NCBI GenBank assembly: GCA_045654505.1
Contig: JAZONM010000005.1
Coordinates: 37,491-101,490, forward strand
Length of the DNA stretch: 64,000 nt
Direction of reading: 5' to 3'
From: Clostridia bacterium
Lineage (GTDB): Bacteria > Bacillota > Clostridia > Christensenellales > UBA1242
Both the position numbers and the translations under genes were made by a program. The stretch's first letter is position 1, and each line of letters begins with the position of its first letter. The notes below the pieces were generated by a model. That model searched no databases. It was not told the origin of the DNA and saw nothing but the letters and a program-made list of their open reading frames with translations. Below, piece by piece: positions 8,746 through 41,200 of the stretch.

Positions 8746-8769
8746 TTGACTAAAGATAAGGAGTACAAT

Positions 8770-11130: not shown

Positions 11131-11131
11131 A

Positions 11132-18232: not shown

Positions 18233-19162
18233 ATGTTATGTATGGAAAGATATCTTGATATAAAATATTTGAAGGGACTTATAAATAAATATTATCCTAC
18301 AGTAATTGATCTCGATTGGATAGATAAAATAGTAAAAGACTTTAGGTGTGAGCAGGATAAACTTCTAAACTCACATAATAGGTTTGCTTATACATATGGA
18401 CAAATAGCGTTTTTGATGTATAGTCTTGAAAGATATATTTTTGAGCATGTAAAGATAGGCGATTTTAAATGGTGTAGTGATAGATTTAAAAACTACATAA
18501 TAAAAGAGTTTTCAAGTTATATTTCACCGCTCTCAAAAATAGATAAAGATGTTTGTTTTGCCGGAAACAATATTTTTATAATAGGTAGAATTCATATTTG
18601 CTCTAATTGTGTTATTTTCGGAAATGTATATATTGTCGCCGAAAACACTCGAGATACTGACAATAATATATTATTTATTGGCAAAAACACCACAATAAAC
18701 AACAATGTCAAAATAATAAATTCTAATATAGGTGAAGGTGTAATTCTGGAAAATGGAGCTGTTGTGAGGGAAAACATAGATGCTTTTTCAAGGGTGAATA
18801 TTGTAAATCAGTTGCAGGTCACAGAGCGTAAAAATGCATATATCCCTTCTCAAGAATTGGAGATATATGGACTTGTTCCTAAATACAAAAACAAACTCAC
18901 AATATATGGTGAGGGGATATACAATCCAAACATCTTGCTAAGATTGGGAGACAGAAAGTATAATATAATTGATATTGATTATTGGGATAAAAATAAAATA
19001 ATCCTTAGAATAAAGTGTGACAAAAGCATGGCTAATAAAATACTTGAAGAAGAGAAAACATGGAGACAGGGTGCTTTTGCAAAACTTATAATAATGAGCA
19101 GGGGTATTAAAACAACGGTCAATGACAATAGGGGTATTATAAAGTTATTAAAAAATATTTAA
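18233..19162 (+). CDS. Hypothetical protein with a left-handed beta-helix (hexapeptide-repeat transferase-like) core
   Basis: Central NNIFIIGRIHICSNCVIFGNVYIVAE..NILFIGKNTTINNNVKIINSNIGEGVILENGAVVRENI has hexapeptide periodicity. Start uncertain (three ATGs at 18233-18242). Confidence 0.55.
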   Translation: MLCMERYLDIKYLKGLINKYYPTVIDLDWIDKIVKDFRCEQDKLLNSHNRFAYTYGQIAFLMYSLERYIFEHVKIGDFKWCSDRFKNYIIKEFSSYISPLSKIDKDVCFAGNNIFIIGRIHICSNCVIFGNVYIVAENTRDTDNNILFIGKNTTINNNVKIINSNIGEGVILENGAVVRENIDAFSRVNIVNQLQVTERKNAYIPSQELEIYGLVPKYKNKLTIYGEGIYNPNILLRLGDRKYNIIDIDYWDKNKIILRIKCDKSMANKILEEEKTWRQGAFAKLIIMSRGIKTTVNDNRGIIKLLKNI

Positions 19163-21988: not shown

Positions 21989-22603
21989 ATGGGAAAAATG
22001 GAAAAAAACAAGTATTTTAATATGTTGATTGTATTATGTATTGTTTTGGTGTTACTTGCTACCACCATGCTTGTTTTGCCGACTGTTACTTGGCTTTCCA
22101 AAACCGATAATACAACAACAAATACCGGCACAAGTAAAGTAGCGACAGCCGGTCTTGCATTATACAACAATACGACTCAAATTACTGATGGGTCGTCATA
22201 TACTGTTACGCTAGGTAGTAGCGGAAGTGCTACAGCGCTTAATCTAAAGGTAAAAAATACTGGTACTGCTAGTTGTCTTTTGAGATTGTATTACAATATA
22301 AAGACTGCAGATAATCAAACATTGACTTCGGCAGATGCGAGTGTGGTGATAAATAGCAATTTTATCGCACATGAAAAACTAAGTACAGCACATTGCGGAT
22401 ATTTGTTTTACAATGCGGCACTTGATGCAAATTCGACGGTTAATGTCTTTACATCAATAACACCGACTGCAAATATGGCGGGAAAACAAGTTGTGGTTCA
22501 GCTTTCTGCTGAGAGTGTAGTTTATGCTGGTAATGCATACACCACTGGCGAGACTTCAAAATATCCTTGGAATAGTGTGCCATCCAATTGGTTTTGCTTG
22601 TAA
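21989..22603 (+). CDS. TasA/camelysin-family (SipW-type signal) secreted protein, paralog 1
   Basis: Signal-anchor then PTVTWLSKTDNTTTNTGTSKVATAGLAL, matching the TasA N-terminal pattern A-F/W-x-D..aG-L-x-L. VKNTGTASCLLRLY. C-terminal VQLSAESV strand. No SD; a TTTACA-17-TAAGAT promoter ends ~14 nt upstream, leaving a near-leaderless mRNA. Confidence 0.6.
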   Translation: MGKMEKNKYFNMLIVLCIVLVLLATTMLVLPTVTWLSKTDNTTTNTGTSKVATAGLALYNNTTQITDGSSYTVTLGSSGSATALNLKVKNTGTASCLLRLYYNIKTADNQTLTSADASVVINSNFIAHEKLSTAHCGYLFYNAALDANSTVNVFTSITPTANMAGKQVVVQLSAESVVYAGNAYTTGETSKYPWNSVPSNWFCL

Positions 22604-22618
22604 TTAAATGAGGTTTAC

Positions 22619-22697
22619 GAAGAAATTTAATTTTATTTTCGCTAGGTCCTCAGCCTTATGGCTTGCGGAAATCGCTCAAACAAAACAAAATTTCTTC
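22619..22697 (+). repeat. Conserved 33-nt motif copy B (22642-22674) inside a second long hairpin
   Basis: ctaggtcctcagccttatggcttgcggaaatcg is 31/33 identical to copy A. It is enclosed by gaagaaattt (22619-22628) / aaatttcttc (22688-22697). Confidence 0.7.
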
Positions 22698-22720
22698 TAA
22701 TAACCTATTTTAAAATACTG

Positions 22721-22775
22721 CGCTAGTTGAGAACAAGAGGTCGCTCGTCCTTATATTTGCGGGAACACTCAAAAA
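22721..22775 (+). repeat. Degenerate third copy of the intergenic motif
   Basis: cgctag..ttat..ttgcgggaa..ctcaaaaaac shares the cgctag / ttgcgg.aa / ctcaaa anchors and their order with copy B. Confidence 0.35.
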
Positions 22776-22799
22776 ACAAAATATTTAAAAGGAGGGAAT

Positions 22800-23402
22800 A
22801 TGAACAACCAAATGTCTAAGAAAAAACGTTACACACTGCTTTTTGCTTTTGTTGCAGTTGTGCTTGCGGTCATGTCTTTATTCATAACTGTTACTTATTC
22901 AATGTTTGGTGACGTAAAGAGCGGCGACTCAGGTAATATCGAGATTGCGACTCTTGACTTTGAAGTTACGTCCACAATGGCATTCCCTTCTACAATACTT
23001 CCAAATACTCAGTATACTGGTGCTGATTACAGCAATGCAATCAAAAACACTGGTAATTCGCGTGAGATTTTTGTAAGAGTAAAACTTGATTCGTCGCTTA
23101 CTGGTTATATTGAACCAATATATGATACATCAAAGTGGGCTGTAGGTGGCCAATATAAGAATGAATATTATTATTTAGGGGTTTTGGCTGAGGGCCAAAG
23201 CGTGACATTTAATACTGGTTTTAGGACCCTAAACAATTTTACAAATGACATTGCGGGAAATACTTTCAATGTGCGACTTACAGTGTATGCTTTGCAAGCA
23301 CAATATCGTGCTTTCGAGGATACTAATAATGGTTGGAAAAACACGTATACTCCAAGCGCATTTACCACTTACTACAATTCAGTAAAAGATACTTACAAAT
23401 AA
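22800..23402 (+). CDS. TasA/camelysin-family secreted protein, paralog 2
   Basis: YSMFGDVKSGDSGNIEIATLDFEV aligns with B. subtilis TasA AFNDIKSKDATFASGTLDLS. IKNTGNSREIFVRVKL. C-terminal NVRLTVYALQAQ resembles TasA KLQFSFEATQ. RBS aaaaggaggg. Confidence 0.65.
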   Translation: MNNQMSKKKRYTLLFAFVAVVLAVMSLFITVTYSMFGDVKSGDSGNIEIATLDFEVTSTMAFPSTILPNTQYTGADYSNAIKNTGNSREIFVRVKLDSSLTGYIEPIYDTSKWAVGGQYKNEYYYLGVLAEGQSVTFNTGFRTLNNFTNDIAGNTFNVRLTVYALQAQYRAFEDTNNGWKNTYTPSAFTTYYNSVKDTYK

Positions 23403-23420
23403 TATAATAAAGGAAGAAAA

Positions 23421-24095
23421 ATGGAAAAGAAGAAGATGGGCAGATTCTCAATATTCTACATCGTGTCAGCGGTTTTGGTGACACTTCTTTCCGTTGTTTC
23501 ATTCACTTTTGCGTGGTATGTAAAATCTACTACTCATTCAATCGGTATTGTATTTGCAAAACCGGTTATTTTGGAAATTGACCCAGAATTGAAGCAAGTA
23601 AATGGCGAGGTTGAGGTGAGTGATGTGTCAAAACTTCTTCCTGGCTCTAAGGTGTCGGTCAATCTTGGATTTAAATTGGGTAATGATCTCCTACAATCTT
23701 CTCCTGCGTATGTAAGAGCAAAACTTGTACTTAGATTTGACGATATTTATGACGAAAACAACAATCCAATCATTTGGAATAGTAGCAAATATATAAAGAT
23801 AGACATCGCTGAAGTTACCAATCAAGTAGGATATACTTGGGAAGAAGTTAATTTTAGCAAGAGTGGAAAAGATGACAAGTGGTGGGTATTGAAATACGAC
23901 GACTATGTAGCACTTCAAGCCCAACATGCTGAATATTATACATTCATGAAAGGTAATATCGAACTTAGTACGGCAATAACAAATGATTTTGCTGAAAAAC
24001 AAATACACGTATTATTTACTGTTGATGCGATTCAAGTAGATAACGTACAAAACCCACTTGCAGACCCGCTTAATAGTGTATGGGCTAGCGAGTAA
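23421..24095 (+). CDS. TasA/camelysin-family secreted protein, paralog 3
   Basis: Signal-anchor then FTFAWYVKSTTHSIG. PAYVRAKLVLRF. C-terminal HVLFTVDAIQVDN strand. RBS aaaggaag. Confidence 0.55.
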   Translation: MEKKKMGRFSIFYIVSAVLVTLLSVVSFTFAWYVKSTTHSIGIVFAKPVILEIDPELKQVNGEVEVSDVSKLLPGSKVSVNLGFKLGNDLLQSSPAYVRAKLVLRFDDIYDENNNPIIWNSSKYIKIDIAEVTNQVGYTWEEVNFSKSGKDDKWWVLKYDDYVALQAQHAEYYTFMKGNIELSTAITNDFAEKQIHVLFTVDAIQVDNVQNPLADPLNSVWASE

Positions 24096-24134
24096 GTATT
24101 AGAAAAACAAATGAAAAAAAGGAGGTAAAGATTT

Positions 24135-25049
24135 ATGGCTGATTATCCAAACATGCCTGGTCAAAACAACCAACAAAACAATCAAAATCAATATAATCAA
24201 CCACGTCCACAAGGCACTTCGCCTTATGGTACTCCTCCTTCGCAAAATCCACGACCTTATCCACAAGGCCAACCTACTCCAAATCCTCAAAGTCAATCGC
24301 CTAATGTGAGTTCGCAATCAAGTAAAGACGAAAGTCTTAGACGACTTGGCCAACAATTAAACAAATCACCTAAGAAAGAGCGAAAGGGTGGTAAGATATT
24401 TATAATAATCCTTGTAGTTTTCCTTGTGGCATTATTGGGTGTAGCTATATGGTACTTCTTGCAAAACAGAAGAGAAGTTGATACAGGTAATTCTATTAAA
24501 ATCTCAATGGACGTTACCGAAGAGGTGGAAGGAAGCGTGGGAGAGATTACGCTTACATCTGCGCCTATCAATCCTGGTGACCAATTTACTGTTATTTGTA
24601 AAGCACGTAATGCCAATCAATTTACTGGTGACTCTGCCGAAGACGAAACTGTACCAATTTACCTAAGATTTAGTGTAATACTTGAAGTAGATGGTGTACA
24701 ATACAATGATTTATTGCTTCCAAATCCTGCTTCGTCAAATTGGCATATCTACAATCCTGAAGAGGAAGCTGAGGGATATGTTTGGGACGGATACTATTAT
24801 TATTATGGAAAACTAAATTACAATGCGTCTGTCGAACTATTTGACACACTTACATTTGACTTTGAAAAGATACCTAATAGTTTTGGTAATAAATCAGCTG
24901 TCATAACAATTAAGATTGACGCTGTCGAAGCAAATATTGATATTATCGGAGTGAATGGTGGCGCTTGGGAGACAGCACCTCAAACATGGATTGATAATAT
25001 GAAGGCGGGACAAAATAATGATAAGCCACCTGTGAAAATAGAGGTATAA
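24135..25049 (+). CDS. TasA-like paralog 4 with a ~90-aa Pro/Gln/Asn-rich cytoplasmic tail and one TM
   Basis: MADYPNMPGQNNQQNNQNQYNQPRPQG..., basic stop-transfer KKERKGGK, TM IFIIILVVFLVALLGVAIWYFL. Ectodomain with PIYLRFSVILEV and AVITIKIDAVEAN, paralogous to genes 1-3. Confidence 0.55.
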   Translation: MADYPNMPGQNNQQNNQNQYNQPRPQGTSPYGTPPSQNPRPYPQGQPTPNPQSQSPNVSSQSSKDESLRRLGQQLNKSPKKERKGGKIFIIILVVFLVALLGVAIWYFLQNRREVDTGNSIKISMDVTEEVEGSVGEITLTSAPINPGDQFTVICKARNANQFTGDSAEDETVPIYLRFSVILEVDGVQYNDLLLPNPASSNWHIYNPEEEAEGYVWDGYYYYYGKLNYNASVELFDTLTFDFEKIPNSFGNKSAVITIKIDAVEANIDIIGVNGGAWETAPQTWIDNMKAGQNNDKPPVKIEV

Positions 25050-25050: not shown

Positions 25051-25455
25051 ATGCTTAAAAAATATGAGAACCTTGTAGGTCTTGCTACAAAACTGATTTT
25101 AGAGAGAAAAGACGAAGGTAAGCACACGGTAGGTTGTTGTGTGCTTACGAAGTCTGGAAAATTTTTCTATGGCGTAAATATGTACATGGACGGAATGAAT
25201 TGTGTGTGTGCAGAGCAAAACGCAGTTGGCTCCGCTCTTACAGCTGGGGAAAAAGAGTTTGATGCTATAGTGTCGGTAGGACTTTTTGATGAGAACTGCC
25301 AAATACTTGCCCCATGTGGCCAATGTCGCCAATTTTTGAGCAAATATGCTCCCAATATTAAAATAATAGTGAAAGGTGAGAAAGAGACTGAGGTTTTGAC
25401 TGTCGATCAGCTTCTCCCTTATGCATACAAGTTTCACCATACAAATCATCAGTAA
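25051..25455 (+). CDS. cdd: Cytidine deaminase (small tetrameric type)
   Basis: CAEQNAV (Zn/catalytic Glu) and PCGQCRQFL motifs. 134 aa. Starts 2 nt after the preceding stop. Confidence 0.85.
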   Translation: MLKKYENLVGLATKLILERKDEGKHTVGCCVLTKSGKFFYGVNMYMDGMNCVCAEQNAVGSALTAGEKEFDAIVSVGLFDENCQILAPCGQCRQFLSKYAPNIKIIVKGEKETEVLTVDQLLPYAYKFHHTNHQ

Positions 25456-25495: not shown

Positions 25496-28171
25496 TTGAG
25501 GAAGATGAAACAAAAAACAGCAAAAATTCTTAATAGTTTTGTTTTGTTTTTAGTGGGAATATTTTTATTCACTGCTTGTAGTTTTGGCGCCTCGCTGACC
25601 TTGCGAGCTCCTGTTGTTATACATGAGCCCAATTTAACAAAAATAAGTTGGGAACAAAATGAAAAAGCGACTCGTTTTGATGTCTATATCAATAATGAAG
25701 TAGTGAAAAGTATAGACCAAGATGATAATGTAAATTTGTATACATTTAATTACTCGTCATATGTGTTAGAAGATGGTAATTATAAGATAAAAGTAAAGGC
25801 CATTGGAGATGGCGAAAAATACAAAGATAGCCGTTTTAGCAATTCTGTAGTAATATACGTCGGAGAAAACATTACCGGTGGATATGATACTTCTGGTCTT
25901 TCTATTGTGAGAGATTCGGATTATGCTCCTATCAATATAGAATATATATCAGATGGGGAAAGTATCAGATGGGATAATGTAGAAAAAAATGGCGATACTC
26001 CTGAGAAATATATTGTTCAGATTTACTGCAACAATTATACCGATGAGGGTGACAATAGAGATAAAATTCGTTCTTTCTATGTTTCGCAAAACTATTTCGT
26101 AATTTCGGATTATCTTAAAGGAAATGAAATACTTGCAATAAGCATAGGAAGTAAATACACGCAAGACGAAAACATATATGTAGGCGATGTGTTCTATTAC
26201 AATCCGCTAAACATGGGTGAATACTCCTCAATATATGTTTTTGATGGCGGAGTATATGATTATTATATAGAGGATTATGAAGAATTACAAAATCTATATT
26301 ACTACGCTTATATTACTCGTGATACAGAAGTAGAATTTTTGGTTTCGGATACTTTTTATCAAAACCATACTGAAGATTACTTTAATATGAATCAGTACAC
26401 ATATGGTGAGTATAGACCATATATTCATCAAAAATATATTAGCGGACTTGACGATAGTTATGACAAGTGGGCTTATTACGAAACATATGATTTTTCGATG
26501 GCTCCATATTTACAAGTTTCTAGCGAAGTAAATGCAAATGGAAAAATACTTACATTAAGGGCTGGTTATAAATATCCCGAAATAATGCTTTCTTATGACG
26601 GAAACAAATACACTGGTCTTAGTGAAAAGGTATTGTCGCAAGCAAATCTTGAGACACCTTATTACGAAAAAGTAGACTATACTTCGCGTGCAGAAGATTA
26701 TGATAATTTTCCAAGTGATAAAAATGTTGTTACGACTTACTGCAATTCCAGCGAAGAATTATACTGGGCTGTAGAAAACAATGTTACTCCTTTATTTAAT
26801 AGTACAAATTCGCGTGCATACCTTATATATGACGAGGCAAAAAAAGTCCTTAAGGACGTCATTTCTGATGAAATGAATGAGTATGAAAAAGTCCTTAGTA
26901 TATTTGATTGGATTGCTACTAATACTTGTTATGATAATGATGGATATGCGAAAGGTGTTTCGACCAATAATCCATGTTATTATCTTGAAGGTGTTTTCCT
27001 TGACAGTAATAGAGTGGCGGTATGTGATGGATTTAGTAAAGCGTTCTCTCTTCTTTGTAATATGGAGGGAATCGACTGTTATCGCGTAATGGGCTTGGCT
27101 GGAGCTTCTGTATCAAAAGGTGGTCATGCTTGGAATAAAGTTGCTGTAAATGGCAAGTGGTATTTAGTGGACATAACTTGGACTGAAATAAAGCAATCTG
27201 AGGCATTGAAAAATGGAGAAGATTTTGTTTATGAAGTGGATTTTGATGGTTTTTATGGATACTACAAACAACCACAATTAGTGCAAACCGAGGAATATAA
27301 TTGCCATAGTTATTTCTTGGTTAGTGATGCCTATGTTTCAAATTCGCACGTGGCATTTCCTGGAAGGGATAAAATAAGTGATGAAAATTTGCCTGCAAAT
27401 AGCATGTATGGTTATTATATTAGCACTGCCTTCATATACGATGGTGCACCATATTCGCGTGTAATTGATAGACAAAGTGATATGGAAGCAATACTCAATT
27501 ATATCTATCAAAACAATATCAAAAACTTTGAAGTTGTGTTTGATTATGATTATATCAATAGTTGGGGATTTGATTTCTCAAGCGCAATCCAAGATGGACG
27601 TGGAAACAATCTATTTATGGGTGTCTCCGTAGAGGGTTATTTAAATTCGATTATAGACAAATTGTATCCATTGGACAATGAGGAAATTATTGAGTATAAA
27701 GAAAAAGAATACAAATGCAGATATGAGAAAAAACATGGCAAATCATCAATAAAACCTATATATTATACAGAAAATAATGTAGGTTATGTGCTGTATTTAT
27801 CATGTGAGACAAATGTAATAAATGTGACTGAAGAAAATCTTGATGATGATAATCGATACAGTCAATTTATTAAGTATATTGTAGACAATGAACTTGAATT
27901 TGATGGTCCAATATCCTTTGAAGATGCTTTCCTTAGTGATGTATTAAAAATTGATTTGAGCACTGCGACTTCTGAAGAAATATCAGTAGCATTGTCCAAC
28001 TATCTAATATCAGATATAAATGAATATGCAAATGATTCCAAATACAAGATAACTAAATTTACTTTTGATAAGACTGAAAATGTGTCCAGTGCAGTATTTA
28101 ATGGAAGTGTATTTGAGGATAAAGAATACGTGGCTTATGTATTTAATATAGACATAAAATTTGATATTTAA
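25496..28171 (+). CDS. Large lipoprotein with Fn3-like N-terminal modules and a transglutaminase-like (Cys-His-Asp) core
   Basis: Signal plus lipobox-like LFTAC. AVCDGFSKAF (Cys codon 27023-27025), GGHAWNKV (His 27125-27127), LVDITW (Asp 27170-27172) in Transglut_core spacing. Start may be ATG 25505. Confidence 0.7.
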   Translation: MRKMKQKTAKILNSFVLFLVGIFLFTACSFGASLTLRAPVVIHEPNLTKISWEQNEKATRFDVYINNEVVKSIDQDDNVNLYTFNYSSYVLEDGNYKIKVKAIGDGEKYKDSRFSNSVVIYVGENITGGYDTSGLSIVRDSDYAPINIEYISDGESIRWDNVEKNGDTPEKYIVQIYCNNYTDEGDNRDKIRSFYVSQNYFVISDYLKGNEILAISIGSKYTQDENIYVGDVFYYNPLNMGEYSSIYVFDGGVYDYYIEDYEELQNLYYYAYITRDTEVEFLVSDTFYQNHTEDYFNMNQYTYGEYRPYIHQKYISGLDDSYDKWAYYETYDFSMAPYLQVSSEVNANGKILTLRAGYKYPEIMLSYDGNKYTGLSEKVLSQANLETPYYEKVDYTSRAEDYDNFPSDKNVVTTYCNSSEELYWAVENNVTPLFNSTNSRAYLIYDEAKKVLKDVISDEMNEYEKVLSIFDWIATNTCYDNDGYAKGVSTNNPCYYLEGVFLDSNRVAVCDGFSKAFSLLCNMEGIDCYRVMGLAGASVSKGGHAWNKVAVNGKWYLVDITWTEIKQSEALKNGEDFVYEVDFDGFYGYYKQPQLVQTEEYNCHSYFLVSDAYVSNSHVAFPGRDKISDENLPANSMYGYYISTAFIYDGAPYSRVIDRQSDMEAILNYIYQNNIKNFEVVFDYDYINSWGFDFSSAIQDGRGNNLFMGVSVEGYLNSIIDKLYPLDNEEIIEYKEKEYKCRYEKKHGKSSIKPIYYTENNVGYVLYLSCETNVINVTEENLDDDNRYSQFIKYIVDNELEFDGPISFEDAFLSDVLKIDLSTATSEEISVALSNYLISDINEYANDSKYKITKFTFDKTENVSSAVFNGSVFEDKEYVAYVFNIDIKFDI

Positions 28172-28250: not shown

Positions 28251-28279
28251 AAAAAGACAGAATTTATCTGTCTTTTTTG
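28251..28279 (+). terminator. Rho-independent terminator
   Basis: aaaaagacaga attta tctgtcttttttg. Confidence 0.7.
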
Positions 28280-28389: not shown

Positions 28390-29841
28390 ATGGTGAAAAA
28401 TATGAGAAATTTAGAAATGGAATTAGATAAAAATATTGGTCATATAAGTCGAGCATTTGAGGGTGTGAATGAATTGGTAAAGAAAGAAATAAAAGTGGGA
28501 AACAAGACACTTGTTCTTTTTTATATGCTTGGAATGAGTGATGCGCAAATGATTGCGGATTTTATTATAAAACCTTGTGTGATGTATGATGGGGTAGATG
28601 TGGGACCTGATCAATTTTTGAAAAGCGTTTTGTTTTGGGGTGAGATTGAGAAGTCTGGCGATATTGATGAGGGCATAGAAAAACTAGCTCATGGACATAG
28701 TCTTTTATTTTTTCCAGATGCAAAAGAATTTTTATATATGGCGACGGATAAGACTAAGGAAAGGGCGTTGAGCGAACCTCCGACAAGTTCGGTATTACAA
28801 GGGCCGCGTCAGGGTTTTGTTGAGAATATAAAGACTAATATTGGGCTAATTAAAAAGATACTTGCTACTCCTAGTCTAAAATCTGAAAACCTAAGCGTAG
28901 GTCGCTATACAAAGACGAGTGTGGCTATCATGTATCTTGATGGAATTTGTGATAGAAAACTTGTTGACAAGGTAAAAAAGAGGATAAAAGAGATTGATAT
29001 TGACGGTATTATAGATTCTTTTTATGTTAGTTCTTTTTTGGAAGAACACCCTGAATCTTTTTTCAAGCAGATTGGTAATGCTGAAAAACCTGATATTGTG
29101 TGTGCAAAATTGCTTGAGGGTAGGCTGGCAATAATTGTCGATGGCTCTCCTATGGTTTTGACTTTGCCTTATATGTTGTTTGAAGATTTTCAGAAAAGCG
29201 GTGATTACTACAATTCTAGTCTCAGGGCCACTATGCTTAGGTGGTTGAGATTGTTTAGTCTTGTTATTACTGTTGCTCTGCCGGGTATGTATGTTGCTAT
29301 TCAATTGTATCATTATAAGGTCTTTCCGTTGACGTTTTTGATTACGATAGTCAATTCTACCCAGGGGATACCATTGTCGCCTTTTGCTGAGATATTGTTT
29401 GTGCTGATACTATTTGAAATATTGTACGAGGCGAGTCTAAGAATGCCTAAATATCTTGGAATGGCGATGTCAATCGTGGGGGCATTGATATTGGGTGATA
29501 CGGCTGTACAGGCGGGGATAATATCTCCTCCAGCTGTAATGATTGTAGCGCTTAGTGGTATTACATTGTATACATTGCCCGAGCAAGCGAGTGTATTAAG
29601 TCTTTTAAGGCTTGCTTATACTCTTGCCGGTGGAATATTAGGTTTTTACGGGATAATCATTTTTACTCTGTATTTTATTGTCTATTTTAATGATTTTGAT
29701 AATTATGGTGTGCCGTATCTTTCGCCATTTGCGCCAAAGGTGAAAAGTGACTATAAAGACGCTATGATAAAAGCAAATATATTGGACATGAAAACACGCC
29801 CTGAAAGTATTAAAAATAAAAATAAAAGGAGGCAGAAATAA
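28390..29841 (+). CDS. Spore germination protein, GerA (A-subunit) family
   Basis: 483 aa. GPRQGFVENI, KLLEGRLAIIVDGSPMVLTLPYMLFEDFQ, and a C-terminal TM bundle, typical of GerAA/KA. Confidence 0.85.
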   Translation: MVKNMRNLEMELDKNIGHISRAFEGVNELVKKEIKVGNKTLVLFYMLGMSDAQMIADFIIKPCVMYDGVDVGPDQFLKSVLFWGEIEKSGDIDEGIEKLAHGHSLLFFPDAKEFLYMATDKTKERALSEPPTSSVLQGPRQGFVENIKTNIGLIKKILATPSLKSENLSVGRYTKTSVAIMYLDGICDRKLVDKVKKRIKEIDIDGIIDSFYVSSFLEEHPESFFKQIGNAEKPDIVCAKLLEGRLAIIVDGSPMVLTLPYMLFEDFQKSGDYYNSSLRATMLRWLRLFSLVITVALPGMYVAIQLYHYKVFPLTFLITIVNSTQGIPLSPFAEILFVLILFEILYEASLRMPKYLGMAMSIVGALILGDTAVQAGIISPPAVMIVALSGITLYTLPEQASVLSLLRLAYTLAGGILGFYGIIIFTLYFIVYFNDFDNYGVPYLSPFAPKVKSDYKDAMIKANILDMKTRPESIKNKNKRRQK

Positions 29842-30980
29842 TGTACAAGGTGACTGACAGACAAGTGGGTATTGCGATGTTTATAACAATACTTTCACTA
29901 AAATTGATTATTTATCCAGCGCTTGTGGCTCGCTTTGCTCAAAACGACTCATATATAAGTGTAATCTTGTCCATTCTAATAGATTTTATTTTTGTGGTTT
30001 TGACAATATCGATAATAAAAAAACACCCTAACAAAAACTTAAAAGAGATACTTGATGAAGGATTTGGTAAAATTTTAAGCAAAATATGTTTGTTTTTATT
30101 GTTGATTTATTTCTTGTGCAAAAGTGTTTTTGCGGTGAAGGAATGTCATGATTTTTTCTTTGTATTGTTATATGATGATTTGGACTGGCTTTACTTTTTT
30201 ATACCGATATTAGCTCTGGCGTGGTTTGTGATGAGAAAGGGTTTAAAGGCTTTTTCTAGGACGATAGAAGTGTGCTGGATTTTGATATTGTTTGGACTTA
30301 TTACTGCCGTGTTTATGTCATTAAATATGGTATCTTCTGACAATTTATTACCATTTTTAGACAATGGGTTAATGCCGATATTTGATGCGACTTTGCGCAC
30401 CAACTTCTGTTTTGGTGACTACTTTATACTTCTTTTGTTTGCTGGAAAAATAAATTTTGAAAATAAGTCTGTAAAGAAAATTTATGGTTATATCGGACTT
30501 GCTTATTTTATTGTAATTGCATTCCACATAATATTCATGGGTGTCTTTGGTAAGTCAAGTGTAATACAGACACTTGCGGTCAGTGATGTATCTTTACAGT
30601 CGCAGGTCCCTCTTACGAATGGTAGGCTCGAATGGCTTAATATTATGATTTGGACAATAACTTTAATTTTGCAGTTTTTATTGGTTATGATGTGCAGCAA
30701 ACTTTGTTTTGAGTACCTTATACCTATAAAGAAAGAAAATATCTCAATTGCTATTATTGAGGTAATTGTAATTATCGGTGCTTATGTATTGTACTTTAGT
30801 TTTGCAAAAGCGATTAGGATAATTCTGACGCCTTACTTTTATCTCACTTCACTAGCTATACAGGTGCTTGTTCCAATTTTTATTTGGATTGCGTCAAAGC
30901 GAGTGTCTAGAAAAGGTGGGAAAGGCGGTCAAACGATAAAGGAGAAAGAATATGAAAAAACTTGCGAAAGCACTCTCTAA
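29841..30980 (+). CDS. Spore germination protein, GerB (permease-like B-subunit) family
   Basis: 379 aa with ~10 TM. ATG overlaps the stop of the A-subunit gene. RBS aaaaggagg. Confidence 0.8.
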   Translation: MYKVTDRQVGIAMFITILSLKLIIYPALVARFAQNDSYISVILSILIDFIFVVLTISIIKKHPNKNLKEILDEGFGKILSKICLFLLLIYFLCKSVFAVKECHDFFFVLLYDDLDWLYFFIPILALAWFVMRKGLKAFSRTIEVCWILILFGLITAVFMSLNMVSSDNLLPFLDNGLMPIFDATLRTNFCFGDYFILLLFAGKINFENKSVKKIYGYIGLAYFIVIAFHIIFMGVFGKSSVIQTLAVSDVSLQSQVPLTNGRLEWLNIMIWTITLILQFLLVMMCSKLCFEYLIPIKKENISIAIIEVIVIIGAYVLYFSFAKAIRIILTPYFYLTSLAIQVLVPIFIWIASKRVSRKGGKGGQTIKEKEYEKTCESTL

Positions 30981-32187
30981 AAAGGGTACATTGATATTTT
31001 TTCTTGTAGTTTTGTTTGTGTTTTTGCCTACTGCTTTTAATAAAGAATCGCAGACAGATGTTAGGGCTATTATGACAGCTATTGGTATTGATAAGAGTAA
31101 TGATGAGTATGAGGTTAGTTGTCTTATGGTTATCCCCACGACTGGTACTGACCCGAATAGTGGGATACAATTGGTTTCCGCAAAAGGTGAGACTGTAAGT
31201 CAGGCGGTCAATCAATTAAGTCGAGACCTTGGAAAAGAAATTGGTTTTGCTCACTGCGACATAATTATAATGAATGATGAAGCCATAGAGGAAAATATCA
31301 CAAAAACACTCGACTACTTTATACGCGGGTACAATATAACTAAGAAAGCATATGTTGTTAATTGTCCAGAAGGTGCAAAAGAGATGCTGAAAACAACCCT
31401 TAAAGAGAAAAGTCTTCCTACACTCCTTCTTGCAAATCTTGTAAATCGTGAGGACAATGCGGTTATGGGAGTGGGAAGTGATGTCGACTTGATATACCGA
31501 AACTATTTTGAAAAAAGCGGGGTCAATTATTTAAATGTATTTGAGCTTAAAAAAGATGATTCGGAGTCAGGTGGTGATTTGCAAAACTCAGGTGAAAATG
31601 GTGGAAGTTCGTCTTCAATGGGAGGACAAGAAGAACAGAAAAAACTCACCAGCAACAATAAACTTGTTTTCTTGAAAAATGGCGTCAAATCGTGTGAAAT
31701 AGAGCAGGATGAGGGTACGTTATATTCGATTTATAAAGGGCAAATTGACCGAGGTTATCTTTATCTCGAAGATGTAGAAGAGAAGGAGAAAAGTCACGCA
31801 AAAGTAGGTGTAGATTTAGTCAAAATCAAGAGAAAAAACAAGTATGTCTTTGAAGACGGAAAACCCACTATAAAGTGTAAAATCACTTTGGTGGTGGCAC
31901 TTCACGAAATTTCGGACGAGGAATTGGATGAGACACAAGTGGATAATAGTCGTACACATATTGGCGAAGGTGTCAAAGAGGCGATAAGAGAAAAACTAAC
32001 TGAGAGTGCCAACAAAATTTTGGAAAAATCGGTGGAGCACAATACTGACATATATGAGTTTTATAATAAATTTTACAAACACAACAATAAAAAGTGGAAA
32101 GAGTATTTTGAGGGGCCGGAAAACAAAGAGGATTATCTAAATGACTGTCAAATAAAGCTTGAAATAACCATTAAAGACAAATTCTAA
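30952..32187 (+). CDS. Spore germination protein, GerC family (no lipobox cysteine)
   Basis: VRAIMTAIGIDKS start of the GerC fold and a C-terminal Spore_GerAC-like region. RBS aaaggag. Overlaps the gerB-like gene by 29 nt. Confidence 0.75.
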   Translation: MKKLAKALSKKGTLIFFLVVLFVFLPTAFNKESQTDVRAIMTAIGIDKSNDEYEVSCLMVIPTTGTDPNSGIQLVSAKGETVSQAVNQLSRDLGKEIGFAHCDIIIMNDEAIEENITKTLDYFIRGYNITKKAYVVNCPEGAKEMLKTTLKEKSLPTLLLANLVNREDNAVMGVGSDVDLIYRNYFEKSGVNYLNVFELKKDDSESGGDLQNSGENGGSSSSMGGQEEQKKLTSNNKLVFLKNGVKSCEIEQDEGTLYSIYKGQIDRGYLYLEDVEEKEKSHAKVGVDLVKIKRKNKYVFEDGKPTIKCKITLVVALHEISDEELDETQVDNSRTHIGEGVKEAIREKLTESANKILEKSVEHNTDIYEFYNKFYKHNNKKWKEYFEGPENKEDYLNDCQIKLEITIKDKF

Positions 32188-32291: not shown

Positions 32292-35200
32292 ATGAGTAAG
32301 CGTAGAAAATTAATAATCAATATCATACTAATTTCCATTTTGATACTACTAGCCCTAGTATCTACTTTGTTGTACATCAATCTGTATCCAAGAGTATCGG
32401 TGCACCTAATCAGTGACAACGAACTTTTAGACACCATTCAAATCAAGAAAAACTCCAGCATTCCGGCATTAAAGTCGCCAGAAAAAGAGGGTTATACATT
32501 TGAAGGTTGGTATAATGACCAAGATTACACCTCACCTTTTGTGTATGGTGAAAGTCTTAGTGATGACATAGAGTTGTACGCAAAATTCACTGCCATTGAT
32601 TATACGCTTACTTTCAATTATGGTGAAATCAGTAATATTTATCCTTCGGCTATTTATCATTTCTACGACGCAGTTGCACTTCCTGATGGTACCGAGACAA
32701 TTCTTATTCAAGGAGAAGAGACCACACTTGCCACTTTAAAACAAGGTTATAAATTTGCTGGTTGGGCTCCTACTAAGAATTCGACTGTTGCTACTTATGG
32801 TAAAGGCACTACTTTCCTTATGCCTTCATCAAATGTTAATTTGTATGCGGTTTGGGAGCCTATCGCTTATTCTGTAAAATACTATATCCAAGATCTTAAT
32901 CAAGTAGATGCGGTACGAGACGTCGATGCCGATGGTTTTGTAGCATATAATGCAAATAGTCATGTAAAATATGGGGAAATCGAGTACAAATACAATACTA
33001 AAGTTGTGGCGCCAGATGCTCCTAAAAATGAGCAAGGGTATTATCAATTTGTAGGTTGGTATGAAGATCCACAATTTACAAAGCCTATCAATTTCAACCA
33101 AACATATATGGGTCTAAACCAACTTTCAAATATCAATCTTGTACCTATTTATGATACAGACAATGAAGACCAAATCTGCCTATATGGTAAATGGCAAGTT
33201 GTTAGATTTAATATTGCATTCTGCCTAAATGGATCATCTCGTGTGGGCACTAAATATGTTGTTAAAGACAGTAGCGTAATGCAAACAGACGAAAATGGTT
33301 CGTATACAAATTCAGACTTCTTCAAATATAAAGAAGACGTGTATTTCGGACTTCCACTTTCTTATCTAGATGGCGGAATCTATTCCAATGCTCTTTTAGA
33401 TGGACAAGTATATTATAGTTATGGAACACTAAGAGATACTGTTTCGCATAAATTTGTAGGCTGGTTTACAGCAAGAAATGCGAGCGAAGGTACTCAATAT
33501 AAAAATGACACTCAATTCAATCCTGAGGACTTCCCAGAGTACTATACAAATAGAGACGAAGGTTTCTCTTTCTTGGAGCCAGGTATCCGCACATACGTGC
33601 TTTATGCTGCTTGGGAAGAATTTTTACATATCGAATATAGTTATAATGGTTCTATCCTTGACCGTCAACAAGTAGAAAATGGTAAAACTGGCCAACTTAA
33701 TGACCCTGCAAAAATGGCAAATGTAAAGAAATCAGGTTATCACTTCATTGGTTGGAGCAAAACAGCTGACGCTCTAAATACTGGTGCTACTATTTATAAA
33801 TTGGGTCAAAACTACAAATTTACTACTGAGGCAAGTGAGAGTGAAGATGAAAACTGTCTATTCTTCTCGGTAGGAAATAGAAAAACAACCTTGTATCCAA
33901 TTTTCAAACCTAACAATTATGAAATCAAATATGATTTTTCTATCAATACACTTGGTAGTGATGGAAAACTTAATGTAATTAAAGACACTCAGCCAAACAA
34001 TGTAGTATTCAGCGACTACATGAAAGAAAAATTGGCGGAGACATACATTATTCGTTATAACACAACTGTAAATGGTAGACTTGAGTCGCATACAGTATTA
34101 AATAGTATCGATACAAATGGCAATTCTAATGCTACTTATAAAGATACAAGTGGTGAAACTTACTTATTGTTGAGTTGGGCAGTAGTAGACGAAGACAATA
34201 ATGTAGTAGCTACATATGCTGGAAACAATGAAATTTATGCAAACAGCACAAATAGCGTAATTTATAAATACAGCAAAGAGAAATCGACTGGAAATTATGA
34301 GTTTGTAATTAAAGCTATTTGGACTACACAAATGACAATTACTTTCGATAAAGGTTGGGACGATGTAGAGGGAGAAGTGCCAGCATCAATCACAGGCATG
34401 ACTGGTGCTACAATAAAACTTCCTACCACTCCAAGTTTGACAAGGCCTTATCATGTATTTAGAGGTTGGGTTGTTGATGCAGAGAGAATAGATGAAAATG
34501 GAAAGGAAAATTATAATCCTGCCAATGTGTATCTTTCAAACAATTCTTATTCATTCAGTGAAAACACAACACTTTATGCTCTTTGGGAGCCAATTGAATA
34601 CAAACTTGTAATCCGAAACACTACAGTAAACGGAAATGAAGGTGCGCAAATTGCCTCCATTTCTATTGGTGCAGGTGTTTATAAAAACATTGTAGCTCAA
34701 GTTACGCTTGGTGAAAATATTGTGATTGGTGATGGTGCTACCGCCACTGTAATCCCTCTATCTTCCCCTCAAGCAGGCTATTCATTGACAGGTTTTTCGA
34801 TTGTGGCTGGCGGTGATGTTGTGTTTGCAAATGGCGAAGTAATCACAATTCTTTCTGAAGCTAATAAAGAAAACATCTTTAATCCATATCCAGCAAGCAA
34901 TGCAAAAACTTTTGTTATCTATGCAAAATATGAAATAAAGAGTTATGACATTGAGATTGACAGAGACGGAGATGGTACTTACGAAACAAAAGAAGAAGAT
35001 GTTAGACATGGTTCGCTTCTTCGTGACAATATGCCAAATCCATCTCTTGCTGAGGGCTATGAAATAGCTTATTGGGAAGTAGATAATGGTGTAGAAATCG
35101 TAAAAATCGAAAATATGAATGCAAGCGATTTTAAGGTTACTTCTGATCTTAAAGTAAAACTTTACACTAAAATTCAAACCTTTACTGTTTTGATCCAACA

Positions 35201-38200
35201 AACTGATCCTGTAAGTGGAAATATAGTAAGTGAAATCAAGAAAGAAGGGGTGGAGTATAATACCACTCTTCAATTAGATCCTACTGACGATGATTATATT
35301 ACATATTTTGGATACATCTTTGATGGCTGGTATTTAGGTGAAACTAAAGTTGAGCTTGCTACACAGGTCATAACTTCAAACGCAACATACAAGACAAAAT
35401 ATGTTGCAGACAAAGTGCGCTTTGTATATCACGCAAATAAAGATGTTGACGACACAACAACAATGAACAGTAGTGCATTTGACTACGGTACAGAGTTTAC
35501 TCTTCCTACACAAGTTTTGTTGGGAAGTGGATTTACAAAATCGGGTTATGTTTTAAGCGGTTGGACTCTTGACGCTGACAATACTGAATTTGTAGGTGCT
35601 ACTAATACAATCGTAAAAGTTTCTAATGACAAATTTGACGAGAGTCTATTCGTGACAGAGTTTGGTCAAACAGGTTATGTTATTCACATTTATGCTCAAT
35701 ACTCTAGACAATTTACTGTATCATTTGAGTTCCCTGATACCGTAACTGCATCTGGAAATACAAGCATTGTGGAAAAATATATTGCTGGTAGTGAAATAAA
35801 TGTTGCTAGTTTTATAAAAAACAATAGCATATCCATTACTCCTGATGCAGGTTATGTATTCAATAATGACTGGTATGTAAAAGGATTTGAAGACGTTTTG
35901 TACAGCGAGTATGAAGTAAATGTTATTGTTGTTAATGACAATATTGTTCTTATGCCATTTGTAGAGACAATCAAATACACAGCAGTATTTAATTACAAAT
36001 ATCCAAGTCAATCTACATACACAACTCTTGAAGACTACACTCAAGAAAATATTGAGATTGACAATGAAGACACAAAAATCAATCTACCATCTGCTGAGAT
36101 GCTTAAGGATATATTGAAGAATGGTGGCACTACATATCGTGCACTTTCTTGGTATCTTCAAGGTGCAGGCGGAACATATGATTTGGGTCAATCTATCACT
36201 CTTACAAGTGATATGATACTTGCCGGAAACACAATAATCGAATTCACATTAAATTTAAGTACTGAGAAGACAGTTCGTTATAATCCAGATGATCCTGACC
36301 TATCATCTGTCGACATTAAAGTTGTTGAGAATGAAACTATATATGTAGGTTATAAAGGTGAAGTAAAAGCCGAAAATCTTATTACATTCACTCGTGAAGG
36401 ATACAATCTTGTATGCTGGATGGCTGGTGATACTGAGTATGCTATCGGTGACGAATTGGTAGTAGGAAAAGATATCGTAGTCGAAGAAGGTAGACCATTT
36501 GTATTCAAAGCTACTTGGGAGAAAAAACAAACAAATATTATTTACAATTCAAATTACCCAGTGGGTGAATTGACTAATATTACCGAGAGCACAACAGTAG
36601 GCTGGGGCACAAACTATTCGGTAGAAAGTAAAAACTGGGATTGCGAAACAGCAGAGTATTTGTATGTAATATCTGCATGGAACACTGAGAGCAATGGAAA
36701 TGGTACTACATACAATGTAGGCGAAACAATAAAAATCACCTTAGAAATGGAAGGCGATTTCAATCTTTACGCTGTGTGGACACGTGCATATAGAGTAATA
36801 TATAAAGATGGTGCAAATCAAGAAAACGGCACAGAAAATATTCTTGTAGGTGAAGAATATACATTTGTAAAAACAACAGATGTTTCATTTACAAAAGAAG
36901 GTCATTATATTGCAAAATGGGCTTACGCAGGCAATGAGTACGAACCATCTACAGACCTTAATCCAAGCAAAGCGATTGTTTTGACAAGGGAAGTACCTGG
37001 CAAAATAGTAGTATTTGAAGCGGTTTGGGCAGCAGACGAATTGACTATTACATTCGTATATACAAATGCTGACGGCACTGAGTACAGTCGTACTACTTAT
37101 GATACAAGTTATGGTGCTACATATTCACATGACTTTGATATGGACAGAGAAACTCTTACATATGATGGTCACAATTATAAATTTGTAGCTTTTGTAGACG
37201 ATAGAGGAAATCAATATACTAGAAATATTGCAAATAAAATTGTTGTTGAGCAAATTACTTACTCAATGACTCTTACTTCGCTTTATCAAAAAGAAGTAAC
37301 CCTTACTTATGTATACGCATCTGATTCAAAAGTTTTGACTTTTGCTGCAGGAACTGTAATCGGCAATGAAGAAAATCCATTCCTTGTGTTTACTGACCAA
37401 GAAATGTCTGACAATGGTGAAGGCAATGCAAAACATATAGGTTGGACTGACGACGCCAATAATTATACCTTTATCTCAAATGCTAGTGAGAGCGGTTATA
37501 ATTATGTGAGACAAAACTCATTTGCAACTACATTCACTCTAAATAATAGTGTTGTTTTGAATATTTTAAAACTTGACAAGTATGAATTATTGATTTATGA
37601 CGATATAAGTTACAATAATACTGAAAGTAAAGTTGAGTTTAGCAATAGTGATTCTGCCATAACTTTGGTTGAGGGTGACACTTATACATATAATTATAAC
37701 AATTCTGATTACAAAGGATTTGTAATTGGTGGAAGTGTATTTAGTTATGATCCAAACACTGAAAAAGATTTGGATGCGAGTGACACATTTACGCTTAATG
37801 GTACTCTTGCAAATACATATTCGAGCGATAAGAAAATATATTTGTATCCTCTACAATATATTGATGTTACTTTTGTAGGTTTGAATGGTGCAGAAAGCAC
37901 TAAGACAATTTTGGCAGGAACAAGTACTTCTCCTGATGATGTAGCAAGCGGTGACGAAAAATCATATTTTTCACACTGGGTAATTGACGCAACAGGGGAA
38001 ACAATTGACTTCGAAAATGATACTCCAATATTCTGGGAAGATACCAAAGTAATTGCTGTATACAAAAACTTCTTCTCTGTACAATATCTTGATAGCGATA
38101 TTGCAAATAGAGATGCTTTAAACAATACAAAACTTAAAGACACTGATAAAATTAAACTTGCTAAAGTCAATAATACAGTAGTCGTAAATGGCAGTACCGT

Positions 38201-41200
38201 CCAAGTAGACTACGTAAAAGCTAATATGGAGCTTATTGGCTGGTATATTTGTTATACTCCAAATGGACTTAGTGGAGATTATGATAGTAAATTGTTTGCG
38301 CTAGAAGAAGAATTTTATCCATACGCTTATGCTGTAGGTAAAGATCTTTATGATGACAATGGCGATATATGGACCAATTTCTATGTATTCCCAGTATGGG
38401 AGGCTGCTTTAATAGATATTACATTCTCTTATCCTGAGAATACAGACAATACAGAGTTTTCTCTAAATGCAAGTGGTACTTATAAAGTAGAATACAATTC
38501 TGATATAGCCATCCAAAATGTTAGCGATACAGTAATGACCATTACTTTCACTGCTGTTGAGGTGCAAGGCGACAATTCGAGAAAATATACAGAGACTACC
38601 ATCACCGCTACAGCCCTTCAAGTAAGTGCCAATAATATTTTGACTCAATGGCAATTTACTGACGGAGAAAGTAATACAAGTGAGATTGATAATACATTCA
38701 AATTTACTGAAGCAGGAAATATCTCATTCACATACACAACTTCTGCTGTAAATATCACAGTAGGTGTAAAATATGCGGGCGAAATACAAACTGAAGATAC
38801 TTATGGATATTTCTATAAGGGCACAAACAAAACAAAACATATTGTAAATTATACAGAGAAAGGCACATCTGGTGCTTATAATCTAAAATTGACTGCTGTA
38901 GAGCAAACAAGCACGGTAGCCGAATTTAAAGGTTGGTACGTATATGACGAGGCGTCTGGCGATTATATAAAAATTGAGAATGACTCAATCTTTACTGTAA
39001 ATGATAAAGTCCTAAACATAACAGGTCTTAAAGACGACGTTGTTATTTATGCCAATTTCTCTACTGGATACGTAACTGTAAACCAAACTAATACATATTT
39101 GCATGCAGACGGAAAAACTGTTGATACAAGCAAAATAACTTCACTTAGAGCTTCATTTGTAAATGTAGATGAAGTTGATGGAGTAAGTTATACTTCAGGT
39201 GAAATTGCAATTGATAGTACAAAAGCATTGTCAGTAAATCTTAATGATACTGTGACTATTACTTACGATCTTACAAGCAGTGTATATCGTGTACACGGCA
39301 TTAGAGTAAGTTATACTGTTCTTGGTGAAACCACAACAACTAATTATCTTGTCGATAATGGCAACGGAAGTGTGTCATTTGCAGTAAATCAAGTTGTGCC
39401 ATATACAATCGAAATGATTCTTGTAGAGAGCGAGATTAAAGTACACTTCAAAGGCTATGATGGTGCGACAGATTTATTTACCAAGACATATCAATACGGA
39501 GCTACTCTTGGCGAAATTGGTCTACCATCTGCAAATGGTAAAGACAATGACCACACAGAAGATGGAAAACTTTATACATTTGCTGGCTGGAATGATTTGG
39601 ATGTAAATGCAAATGTAACTCAAGATATGGACATCATGTCTTCTTGGATAAGAGTATATGACGTGGTAGTAAATAATGGTGATAGTGATACTGTTCACAA
39701 AATTATTTACACTTCAAGTGATACTGAGACTACAAGTCTTAGTGGTGAATACTCAAATTACATTTCACTTAGTGCAACATCAAAAACAAATTATAGACTT
39801 GCTAAGTACATATTTACTTACGAGATAGACGAAAATATCGTAGTTGATTTATCGGAAAATGTGTTTAGACTAAATGATGTTTTGACTCAAGCTGAAGTCG
39901 AACAAACAGTAAGAATGCGAATAGATCCAGTCTATGAAAAACTTTATGCTATAAAAGTTTATGATAAAGATGGATTTGTTAGAGATAGTATAGATCAAAT
40001 ATCTATCCATGAGACTATCAATTATTCTGTAATAGATGAAGTAGGTTATGATTTTGTAAATTGGAATGTATCCTACAATGGCAAGACCCAAACCATCACT
40101 TCACTAGAAAACTTCAAATTAGAAAGTCTTTCTATTTTGGATGATGATAGTGTACATTTGATAGAATTTGAACCTATATATCAATTAAAGACATTTACTC
40201 TTACTTTTGTTGTAAACAATTCTTCTCGCGGTAGCATAAATGCAAGCAATGAGGGTTATGAAATACACTATGGTGAGAAAATCACCTTTAGTGGAAAAGT
40301 AGCTACATTTACTGATAGTCTTGATAGACCACAAGAGATTACAGCGACAACTATCGGTGCATACCAATTCTTGGGTTATAGCACTACTAACAGCGAAAGC
40401 ATTGAGGCTTTGACTGAGTATACTATTACAGATAATATTGTAATTTATGCAATCTTTGTAAATGCTACTGTAGGTATTACTGCAGAATTGCATACTTATG
40501 TAGCTGGCACTGAAAGAAATGACATGGACGGAGGTTGGATTGTTCAGATAGTAGGACTTGATGAGATTCCTGCTACATCTTGGAATTTGACAGCATCTAC
40601 CGGAACTACAATACAATTCAACATTTCTAGCGAAGTTGGATTTAATTTGACTAGTGTTGAGGTAAAAGTAGGCAATGGAGACTACGAAACACTTATACCA
40701 GACGGTGCAATTTATTCCATACTAATAACTGATGTTACTGATATCCAAATTCGTTTTGATGCTATCGAATATGATGTGACAATTGGTATGGGAAGTGTAA
40801 CTGGATTTACTCAAACACCATGGGCTTATTACATGGATAGTGAAGACAATCCTATATCTATCACAACAAGAGAAACAAATGTATATCAAGATATCGCATA
40901 TTCACTTGAAAAGACTTTAGTGATTTATGCTGAAGAAGAATATTATGACATTGACGAAATTGTTTATACTCTAGGCACGTCAACAACAGAAAATGATATC
41001 GTAGACTATACAATCAATGCTGATGGACAATATGAAATCAAATTTGTAGTTACTAATGACGTACATATCAAGGTATATGTGAAGTTTAGAGAAATACAAG
41101 CAATTTTCCATGACTATCAAGGAAATTTGACAGGCAAAACAAAGACATTTACTTACAACCAAACAATTTCGGGCGTAGATGTTTCGGATGCTACTTACCG

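Follow-up and report, generated by a model that had tools for sequence, protein, structure and literature searches.

Four consecutive plus-strand genes, here called g1 to g4, lie in a 64,000-nucleotide stretch of contig JAZONM010000005.1 from a Clostridia bacterium (hereafter the window, which has ~34% G+C and carries sporulation and germination genes). A reading made from the sequence alone had described them as an operon of TasA/camelysin-like paralogues without a SipW signal peptidase, and had proposed that they build a fibre. The open reading frames (ORFs) of 204, 200, 224 and 304 amino acids (aa) are found exactly where that reading had placed them, the strong ribosome-binding sites it assigned to g2–g4 are present as GGAGG-type or AGGAAG-type sequences, and the middle and C-terminal strand motifs it quoted occur in all four proteins. 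There is no obvious ribosome-binding site in front of g1. In each protein a beta-rich domain comes after a single strongly hydrophobic segment, and the features of the four genes are as follows (TM, transmembrane; a caret marks a cleavage position).

21989..22603, + strand: g1, 204 aa, predicted TasA/BsaA-superfamily paralogue; TM/signal residues 12-31, then a 'PTVTWLSK' motif
22604..22799, + strand: spacer between g1 and g2, 196 bp, with a long imperfect hairpin
22800..23402, + strand: g2, 200 aa; signal/TM residues 13-34, predicted cleavage TYS34^M35
22902..22958, within g2: putative donor segment, residues 35-53
23421..24095, + strand: g3, 224 aa; signal end 'SFTFA^WYVK'
24135..25049, + strand: g4, 304 aa; cytoplasmic tail of 87 aa (nucleotides 24135-24395), TM residues 88-109, TasA-like ectodomain

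Orthologues of g1–g4 in the same order occur on many independent contigs from metagenomes and metagenome-assembled genomes (MAGs; 16 loci fetched, some of them partial), and we therefore regard the four as real genes. The order extends to the loci L012-L015 and L017; the L015 contig stops within g4, and L016 carries g1–g3 only. Gene assignment in L012-L017 relied on hidden Markov models (HMMs) of the four paralogue groups. When a genome collection was searched with a profile of the g2 family (A1, 13 sequences), two MAG loci were recovered. The g2 family is small, with 14 clusters at 90% identity, all unannotated, and g2 identity across lineages with conserved gene order is only 25-40%. Among the four proteins themselves, pairwise blastp similarity is weak, and comparison of narrow profiles linked g3 with g4 (94%) and g2 with g4 (86%), the remaining pairs not being significant. 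Judging from these comparisons, the paralogy is real but very distant.

Kinship with TasA was approached through remote relatives. The A1 profile, searched with HMMER against 1.84 billion representative proteins, returned 67 distant proteins at E ≤ 1e-3. Of 56 relatives scanned, 18 matched TIGR04090, the BsaA family of SipW-dependent biofilm matrix proteins (best E 3.4e-12), 11 matched PF12389 (best E 5.9e-6) and nine matched TIGR04088, which describes the SipW-dependent-type signal peptide; the 19-bit cutoff of the last model was passed by P0071 (25.2 bits) and P0059 (19.3 bits). We then aligned profiles with hhalign, using a broad profile built from 50 relatives outside the g2 clade and, for g1, g3 and g4, alignments of 7 orthologues each from syntenic loci. 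All four paralogues matched the broad profile: g1 at 96.3% (E 1.6e-9, over the C-terminal 69 columns), g2 at 100%, g3 at 98.6% (E 1.1e-15, 167 columns) and g4 at 99.4% (E 1.4e-21). In turn, the broad profile matched a TasA/CalY reference alignment of 111 genuine PF12389 proteins (94.1%, E 1.3e-7), as did a g2-centred alignment, A3 (91.4%, E 9e-7). Sequence searches of the Protein Data Bank (PDB) with g2 (phmmer) and with the A1 profile gave nothing relevant, and the top match of the A3 profile among 177,635 PDB sequences was TasA (8aur, E 0.029), through the C-terminal h-x-h-x-A-x-Q strand. The N-terminal alignment of g2 with TasA proposed earlier was reproduced by hhalign with the same pairing (TYS^MFGDVKS..ATLDFEV against TWA^AFNDIKS..GTLDLSA; the Bacillus subtilis TasA sequence used is identical to PDB 8aur_A), and g2 'VTYSMFGD' aligns column for column with the TIGR04088-positive relatives P0071 and P0059 and with TasA 'GTWAAFND'.

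Taken as profile evidence, this gives good support to g1–g4 being anciently diverged paralogues within the TasA/BsaA (camelysin, Peptidase_M73) superfamily of secreted beta-sandwich proteins, with g2 appearing as the most TasA-like of them. The earlier description of the genes as TasA/camelysin-like paralogues thus stands at the level of the superfamily, by transitive and profile-profile evidence; membership of the curated TasA/CalY or BsaA families, and significant fold similarity, were not borne out. The cassette also exposes a gap in the present Pfam and NCBIfam models, which leave an entire branch of the TasA superfamily undetected.

Two other architectures were seen in proteins related to g2. 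In P0025, P0030 and P0045, a g2-like N-terminal TasA-type domain is fused to a C-terminal BspA-type LRR_5 region, a type that would be a fibre subunit with an adhesin module. In P0022, P0048, P0069, P0073 and P0079 (1100-5800 aa), g2-profile positions ~15-83 are matched 4-24 times each, and these may be tandem repeats of a half-domain related to the g2 donor segment and first strands.

When TasA polymerises, residues 28-38 of each subunit enter the neighbouring one, F29, I32 and F39 make hydrophobic contacts, and TapA has been proposed to supply the first donor strand (PMC9674648). In the hhalign register TasA A27^A28 corresponds to g2 S34^M35, and the three contact residues map to g2 F36, V39 and I47, of which F36 and I47 are invariant. 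An AlphaFold2 (AF2) model of g2 built from 61 sequences is an all-beta sandwich (predicted local distance difference test, pLDDT, 89.9; predicted template modelling score, pTM, 0.73) in which residues 37-53 have no secondary structure and pLDDT falls below 50 at residues 40-47. Residues 28-38 of BsaA are likewise disordered in the monomer (PMC11580942). Identity across 12 lineages is 0.57 in the donor-equivalent segment and 0.52 in the core; we thus rejected the idea that the segment is unusually conserved, its conservation being equal to that of the core. Each paralogue group keeps its own N-terminal strand signature across lineages. BsaA has been modelled with donor-strand insertion and an N-K isopeptide lock, its oligomers being membrane-anchored by unknown means (PMC11580942); in the 'exchange-and-lock' subgroup an N-E-K triad (N35, E56, K74) forms the intermolecular isopeptide bond. 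In the g2 clade, N/D46 lies in the donor segment and K95 and E122 are invariant.

The other paralogues have features of their own. In g1 orthologues, 0, 1 or 2 copies of a ~150-aa insert separate the N-terminal strand from the conserved C-terminal domain, as seen in a comparison of L001:8443-9981, L003:8863-9969, L007:3961-5073, L008:372-1472, L009:3-1160 and L012:8809-9984. The insert is weakly FN3-like with no confident annotation; the window g1 is without it, and L012 has a C-terminal extension instead. Every g4 orthologue has, before the TM helix, a cytoplasmic tail of 58-98 aa that includes a conserved helical motif. In the window g4 the tail is rich in Q, N and P and ends in the conserved 'LRRLGQQLN' motif and a K/R cluster, and g4 of L015 and L017 has the same 'MAD..' and Q/N/P-rich start. 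On these features g2 is a candidate major subunit, g1 a candidate minor or tip subunit, g3 a candidate minor subunit and g4 a candidate membrane-anchored base or nucleator. An additional g4-like, g3-like and g4-like set lies between the core cassette and the next gene, encoding a transglutaminase-like protein, at L014:11551-14173; because of this three-gene set, L014 has seven TasA-like paralogues in a row.

Downstream, the sequence-only reading had the operon run into cdd and then a transglutaminase-like lipoprotein gene, and both do follow g4 directly. The genes and signals on this side of the cassette are the following.

25051..25455, + strand: cdd, cytidine deaminase (PF00383, E 3e-14)
25496..28171, + strand: transglutaminase-like (Transglut_core) lipoprotein, 891 aa (PF01841, E 1e-12); lipobox 'LFTAC'; Cys510/His544/Asp motifs intact
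28251..28277, + strand: terminator-like hairpin, 11 bp followed by a T-run
28390..32187, + strand: gerA/gerB/gerC germinant-receptor operon, assigned from Pfam matches
32292..51770, + strand: giant surface protein, 6492 aa; N-terminal TM segment, Flg_new repeats and BspA-type LRRs near the C-terminus

The transglutaminase-like gene stands directly after g4 in L013, L014 and L017, and after cdd in L012 and in the clade to which the window belongs (the window clade). Its full-length orthologues in L012, L013, L014 and L017 share 29-37% identity over 650-810 aa, with E-values of 1e-66 to 1e-127; the gene is better conserved than the TasA-like genes, and an orthologue is present in all lineages with complete loci. 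By this distribution the lipoprotein is the most consistently co-conserved partner of the cassette rather than an incidental downstream gene, and its catalytic motifs are intact. By comparison, cdd separates g4 from the transglutaminase-like gene in the window clade and L012 and is absent from that position in L013, L014 and L017; it probably entered the cassette as a passenger in the window clade. Between g1 and position 28251 there are only weak terminator candidates of 5-6 bp, and the hairpin at 28251-28277 is likely the end of the transcription unit. A promoter scan of the sequence performed at chance (34 found against 33.7 expected).

As the earlier reading had noted, the window has no sipW: neither Pfam scans of ORFs of at least 150 aa nor tblastn with cassette-linked SipW proteins detected a signal peptidase in the 64 kb. 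The same holds for the window-clade loci and L012 (9 syntenic loci, +/-10 kb, including tblastn). Behind the giant gene, the gap is occupied by rpsF-ssb-rpsR, with no trace of a peptidase. In L013 and L014, however, the cassette is headed by a SipW-type peptidase (L013:8558-9142, 56 bits; L014:8549-9025, 67.9 bits, against a TIGR02228 cutoff of 51.85; E about 1e-14 for both on the Bacillus SipW model). L015 and L017 have homologous peptidases in the same leading position, and L017 was reached independently, from the SipW side. In these sipW-headed lineages g2 identity is about 25-30%. The L015 enzyme (L015:2818-3525) has a K/N-rich N-terminal extension of ~95 aa before its peptidase domain, which is unusual for S26B peptidases.

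Because these divergent relatives carry sipW as the first gene, the cassette is taken to be ancestrally SipW-linked, with only the linkage lost in the window clade. From gene order the ancestral layout appears to be giant surface protein, sipW, g1, g2, g3, g4 and transglutaminase-like lipoprotein. Small residues occupy positions -1 and -3 of the TasA-equivalent cleavage site (TWA^A) in g1–g3, in sipW-linked and unlinked lineages alike, and g1 and g3 have T-x-[A/T/S]^W variants of the signal end. Archaeal TasA-like pili offer a precedent for processing without a linked peptidase (PMC9245690). The earlier inference of a system without SipW and with a non-canonical maturation route is not supported: the absence is only local, sipW heads the cassette of relatives, the cleavage-site residues are kept and an unlinked precedent exists.

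From the homology and synteny described above we infer how cleavage, polymerisation, the subunit roles and the part of the enzyme may fit together. We think it probable, with considerable room for doubt, that g1–g4 build a SipW-type-processed, donor-strand-assembled fibre encoded by a conserved cassette of uncultured gut Clostridia. All four proteins would be exported by Sec, and g1, g2 and g3 would be cleaved at a T-x-[A/S/T]^ site; the enzyme would be either a SipW-type peptidase whose gene lies elsewhere in the genome or the general signal peptidase. In the manner of TasA and BsaA, g2 would then lend its new N-terminal segment (residues 35-53) to its neighbour as a donor strand, and as the major subunit it would form the shaft. 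With its long conserved cytoplasmic tail, and with a TM helix that leads straight into a donor-strand-like segment, g4 would most likely stay in the membrane as base or nucleator, a role analogous to that of TapA. The modular g1, with its variable inserts, and g3 would be minor, adaptor or tip subunits, and the extracytoplasmic transglutaminase-like lipoprotein would act on the assembly by cross-linking or proteolytic trimming. A multi-subunit fibre with specialised subunits is plausible, and specialised subunits are favoured by the fixed gene order, the distinct strand signatures, the modular g1 and the g4 tail that is always present.

A stronger version, in which g1–g4 form an ordered heteropolymer and hence an undescribed Gram-positive surface organelle, we consider rather improbable. 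Here g4 would be the base and provide the first donor strand, g2 the shaft, g3 the adaptor and g1 the modular tip, with the lipoprotein as a dedicated maturation enzyme. The enzyme would then cross-link subunits, as a counterpart to the autocatalytic isopeptide lock of BsaA, or would couple the fibre to the giant adhesin, to the wall or to the spore surface, and could take over proteolytic processing in clades without linked sipW.

A number of results weigh against the fibre reading. Scans of g1–g4 with Pfam (PF12389) and NCBIfam (NF046066, TIGR04088-04090) models gave no match even at E ≤ 1, so that of the family searches that had been suggested as a check, those with the proteins themselves came back empty and those with remote relatives of g2 succeeded. 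The 60-bit cutoff of TIGR04090 was reached by 0 of the 20 relatives scanned individually, the closest relatives scoring 17-30 bits. The match to TasA/CalY spans mainly the N-terminal ~70 columns, including the hydrophobic signal segment, and none of the narrow g1–g4 profiles matched TasA/CalY significantly alone. Foldseek searches of the PDB with two g2 models (pLDDT 75.7 and 89.9) gave no match at E ≤ 1e-3; the TasA fibre 8aur reached E 0.03-0.09 (0.089 over 202 columns), and generic immunoglobulin (Ig)-like folds did equally well. As both searches were without a significant match, structure is not usable as proof of TasA kinship. Donor-strand exchange is proposed for g1–g4 on the basis of a conserved, unpacked segment, and the subunit roles are read from sequence features only. 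No SipW was found for the window genome, for which the search covered 64 kb of one 234-kb contig. Lastly, g4 has a possible small-residue cleavage register, G-V-A^IWYF. We had considered g4 uncleavable through an aromatic residue at -1 and dropped this idea given the alternative register, because of which permanent anchoring of g4 is not established.

With these points in mind, it is conceivable, though on balance unlikely, that g1–g4 belong to the TasA superfamily but build no fibres and are instead monomeric or membrane-tethered beta-sandwich proteins of the surface or spore coat, acting with the transglutaminase, or as its substrates, in envelope or spore-surface remodelling. Consistent with such a role, gerABC is a conserved neighbour in three lineages and the fold search of g2 is generic; BsaB forms dimers only (PMC11580942). 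On the other hand, donor-strand exchange is used by every member of the superfamily structurally characterised to date, namely TasA, BsaA (modelled and supported by mutants), the archaeal bundling pili and the cannulae (PMC9674648, PMC9245690, PMC11580942); the equivalent segment of g2 is conserved and unpacked in the monomer model, and the fixed order of four specialised paralogues suggests ordered assembly.

Maturation may also differ from what the fibre reading supposes. It seems improbable that processing in the window clade is independent of SipW, either with uncleaved signal anchors that leave all four proteins tethered or with processing by the general signal peptidase or by the transglutaminase-like (papain-fold) lipoprotein. 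What speaks for it is that sipW is missing from the 64 kb and from the nine syntenic loci, weakly that among the best 120 of 1544 matches of a SipW profile to 5.8 billion proteins no contig has the length of the window contig, that archaeal TasA-like pili are thought to use a generic peptidase (PMC9245690), and that the enzyme is extracytoplasmic with an intact Cys-His-Asp triad; yet the window is one part of one contig of the genome, and the cleavage-site motif is the same in sipW-linked and unlinked lineages. Moreover, L013, L014 and L017 have sipW and the same transglutaminase together, and because both are present there the enzyme is not a replacement for SipW in these lineages. An identification of g1–g4 as other pilins, whether type IV pilin-like proteins, pseudopilins or sortase-assembled subunits, is scarcely credible. 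An N-terminal hydrophobic helix followed by a beta domain would suit it, and g1 has a weak ComGC match confined to the TM region (E 0.019, 15 bits against a cutoff of 75). But none of the four has a class III signal (G^F/M-x-x-x-E); no prepilin peptidase, assembly ATPase, platform protein or pil/com assembly gene is found in the window; the C-termini are hydrophilic (..NWFCL, ..KDTYK, ..VWASE, ..VKIEV) with no LPXTG, no sortase is encoded in the window, and profile evidence places the proteins in the TasA/BsaA superfamily. These sequence features effectively refute the type IV and sortase pilin readings.

The closest known systems are the sipW-bsaABC operon of Clostridium perfringens and tapA-sipW-tasA of B. 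subtilis, with archaeal AbpA and CanA more distant and chaperone-usher pili an analogy only. Like the cassette, the clostridial sipW-bsaABC(RSD) operon encodes several TasA-like paralogues (BsaA and BsaB). Export requires a SipW-type signal, the N-terminal segment is disordered in the monomer and predicted to be a donor strand, and the fibres are membrane-associated (PMC7395162, PMC11580942). Multi-paralogue BsaA/TasA operons have been noted before, and heteropolymers suggested (PMC11580942). TIGR04090 is the best-scoring curated model for relatives of g2, but g1–g4 and their closest relatives fall below its cutoff or do not match. The cassette differs further in having four fixed paralogue types instead of two, one of them with a long cytoplasmic tail, and in its transglutaminase-like and giant partners. 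It lacks the von Willebrand factor A (vWA) protein BsaC and the two-component system of the C. perfringens operon, and its sipW is unlinked in the window clade.

With B. subtilis TasA the cassette proteins have in common the N-x-G strand and the C-terminal h-x-h-x-A-x-Q strand, and g2 has a similar signal end and donor strand (TWA^AFNDIKS..GTLDLS in TasA, TYS^MFGDVKS..ATLDFE in g2). They differ in giving no direct PF12389 or NF046066 match, in being ~60 residues shorter and in lacking the helical insertions of TasA. The TapA concept, in which an accessory protein nucleates or anchors the fibre and contributes its first donor strand, is transferable (PMC9674648, PMC10151520), but the cassette has no TapA homologue and no linked sipW, and the proposed anchor, g4, is itself TasA-like with a TM helix. 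The bundling pili of Pyrobaculum (AbpA/AbpB) and the cannulae of Pyrodictium (CanA) are, as proposed for the cassette, very divergent donor-strand fibres of the TasA superfamily, and like the window the abp operon has no dedicated peptidase nearby (PMC9245690). The cannulae structure 9h8b (E 0.017, probability 0.99) and the bundling pili 7ueg (E 0.033) and 7uii were among the top Foldseek matches of g2, none of them statistically significant. The archaeal systems differ in having a single major subunit with a TapA-like AbpB and no known transglutaminase partner. Chaperone-usher pili similarly have a specialised tip adhesin, adaptor, major and terminator or anchor subunits in one operon and use N-terminal donor strands, and their SafA and CFA/I subunits are weak Foldseek matches to g2; however, they are not homologous, and the cassette has no chaperone, usher or outer membrane.

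To our knowledge, fibres assembled by donor-strand exchange in Gram-positive bacteria and archaea are mainly of the TasA type, and those characterised (TasA, BsaA, AbpA, CanA) are all single-subunit systems, heteropolymers having been suggested only from operon surveys. What appears new here is the combination of a fixed order of four paralogues, a co-conserved transglutaminase-like lipoprotein with intact catalytic motifs and the long cytoplasmic tail of g4; in the literature searched, no paper joined TasA, donor strand and transglutaminase. The cassette thereby offers a specific and conserved candidate for a TasA-type fibre of several subunits in a set order, with a membrane-anchored paralogue and an enzyme partner. 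Its hosts are abundant, uncultured gut Clostridia and it lies beside genes for giant adhesin-like proteins and germinant receptors, and owing to this habitat and these neighbours it may bear on the attachment of cells or spores in the gut.

Regarding these neighbours, gerABC adjoins the cassette in three lineages (the window clade, L012 and L014), an association of position only. A gene for a giant protein (3000-6500 aa) lies near the cassette in all lineages examined. It precedes sipW in L013, L014, L015 and L017; in the window clade and L012 it comes after gerABC. The giants of different lineages are not clearly orthologous to one another, and the giant protein of the window has no g2-like repeats.

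Some smaller observations concern other parts of the window. The spacer between g1 and g2 is predicted to fold, as RNA, into the imperfect hairpin listed above at -44.6 kcal/mol (z = -2.5); in other clade members the same spacer measures 12-40 bp, except in L009, where it is 174 bp. In all syntenic loci, pheT and the MFS-DegV genes flank a conserved 309-aa ORF (18233-19162 in the window) with weak hexapeptide/left-handed beta-helix signals and no confident annotation. Finally, the region 8746-12043 encodes NrdD, an anaerobic ribonucleotide reductase (RNR) of 794 aa with a C-terminal glutaredoxin/thioredoxin-like domain (residues ~715-790), and a thioredoxin-reductase-like Pyr_redox_2 protein whose gene (11114-12043) overlaps the end of NrdD; this pair suggests a fused, dedicated reductant system for class III RNR.

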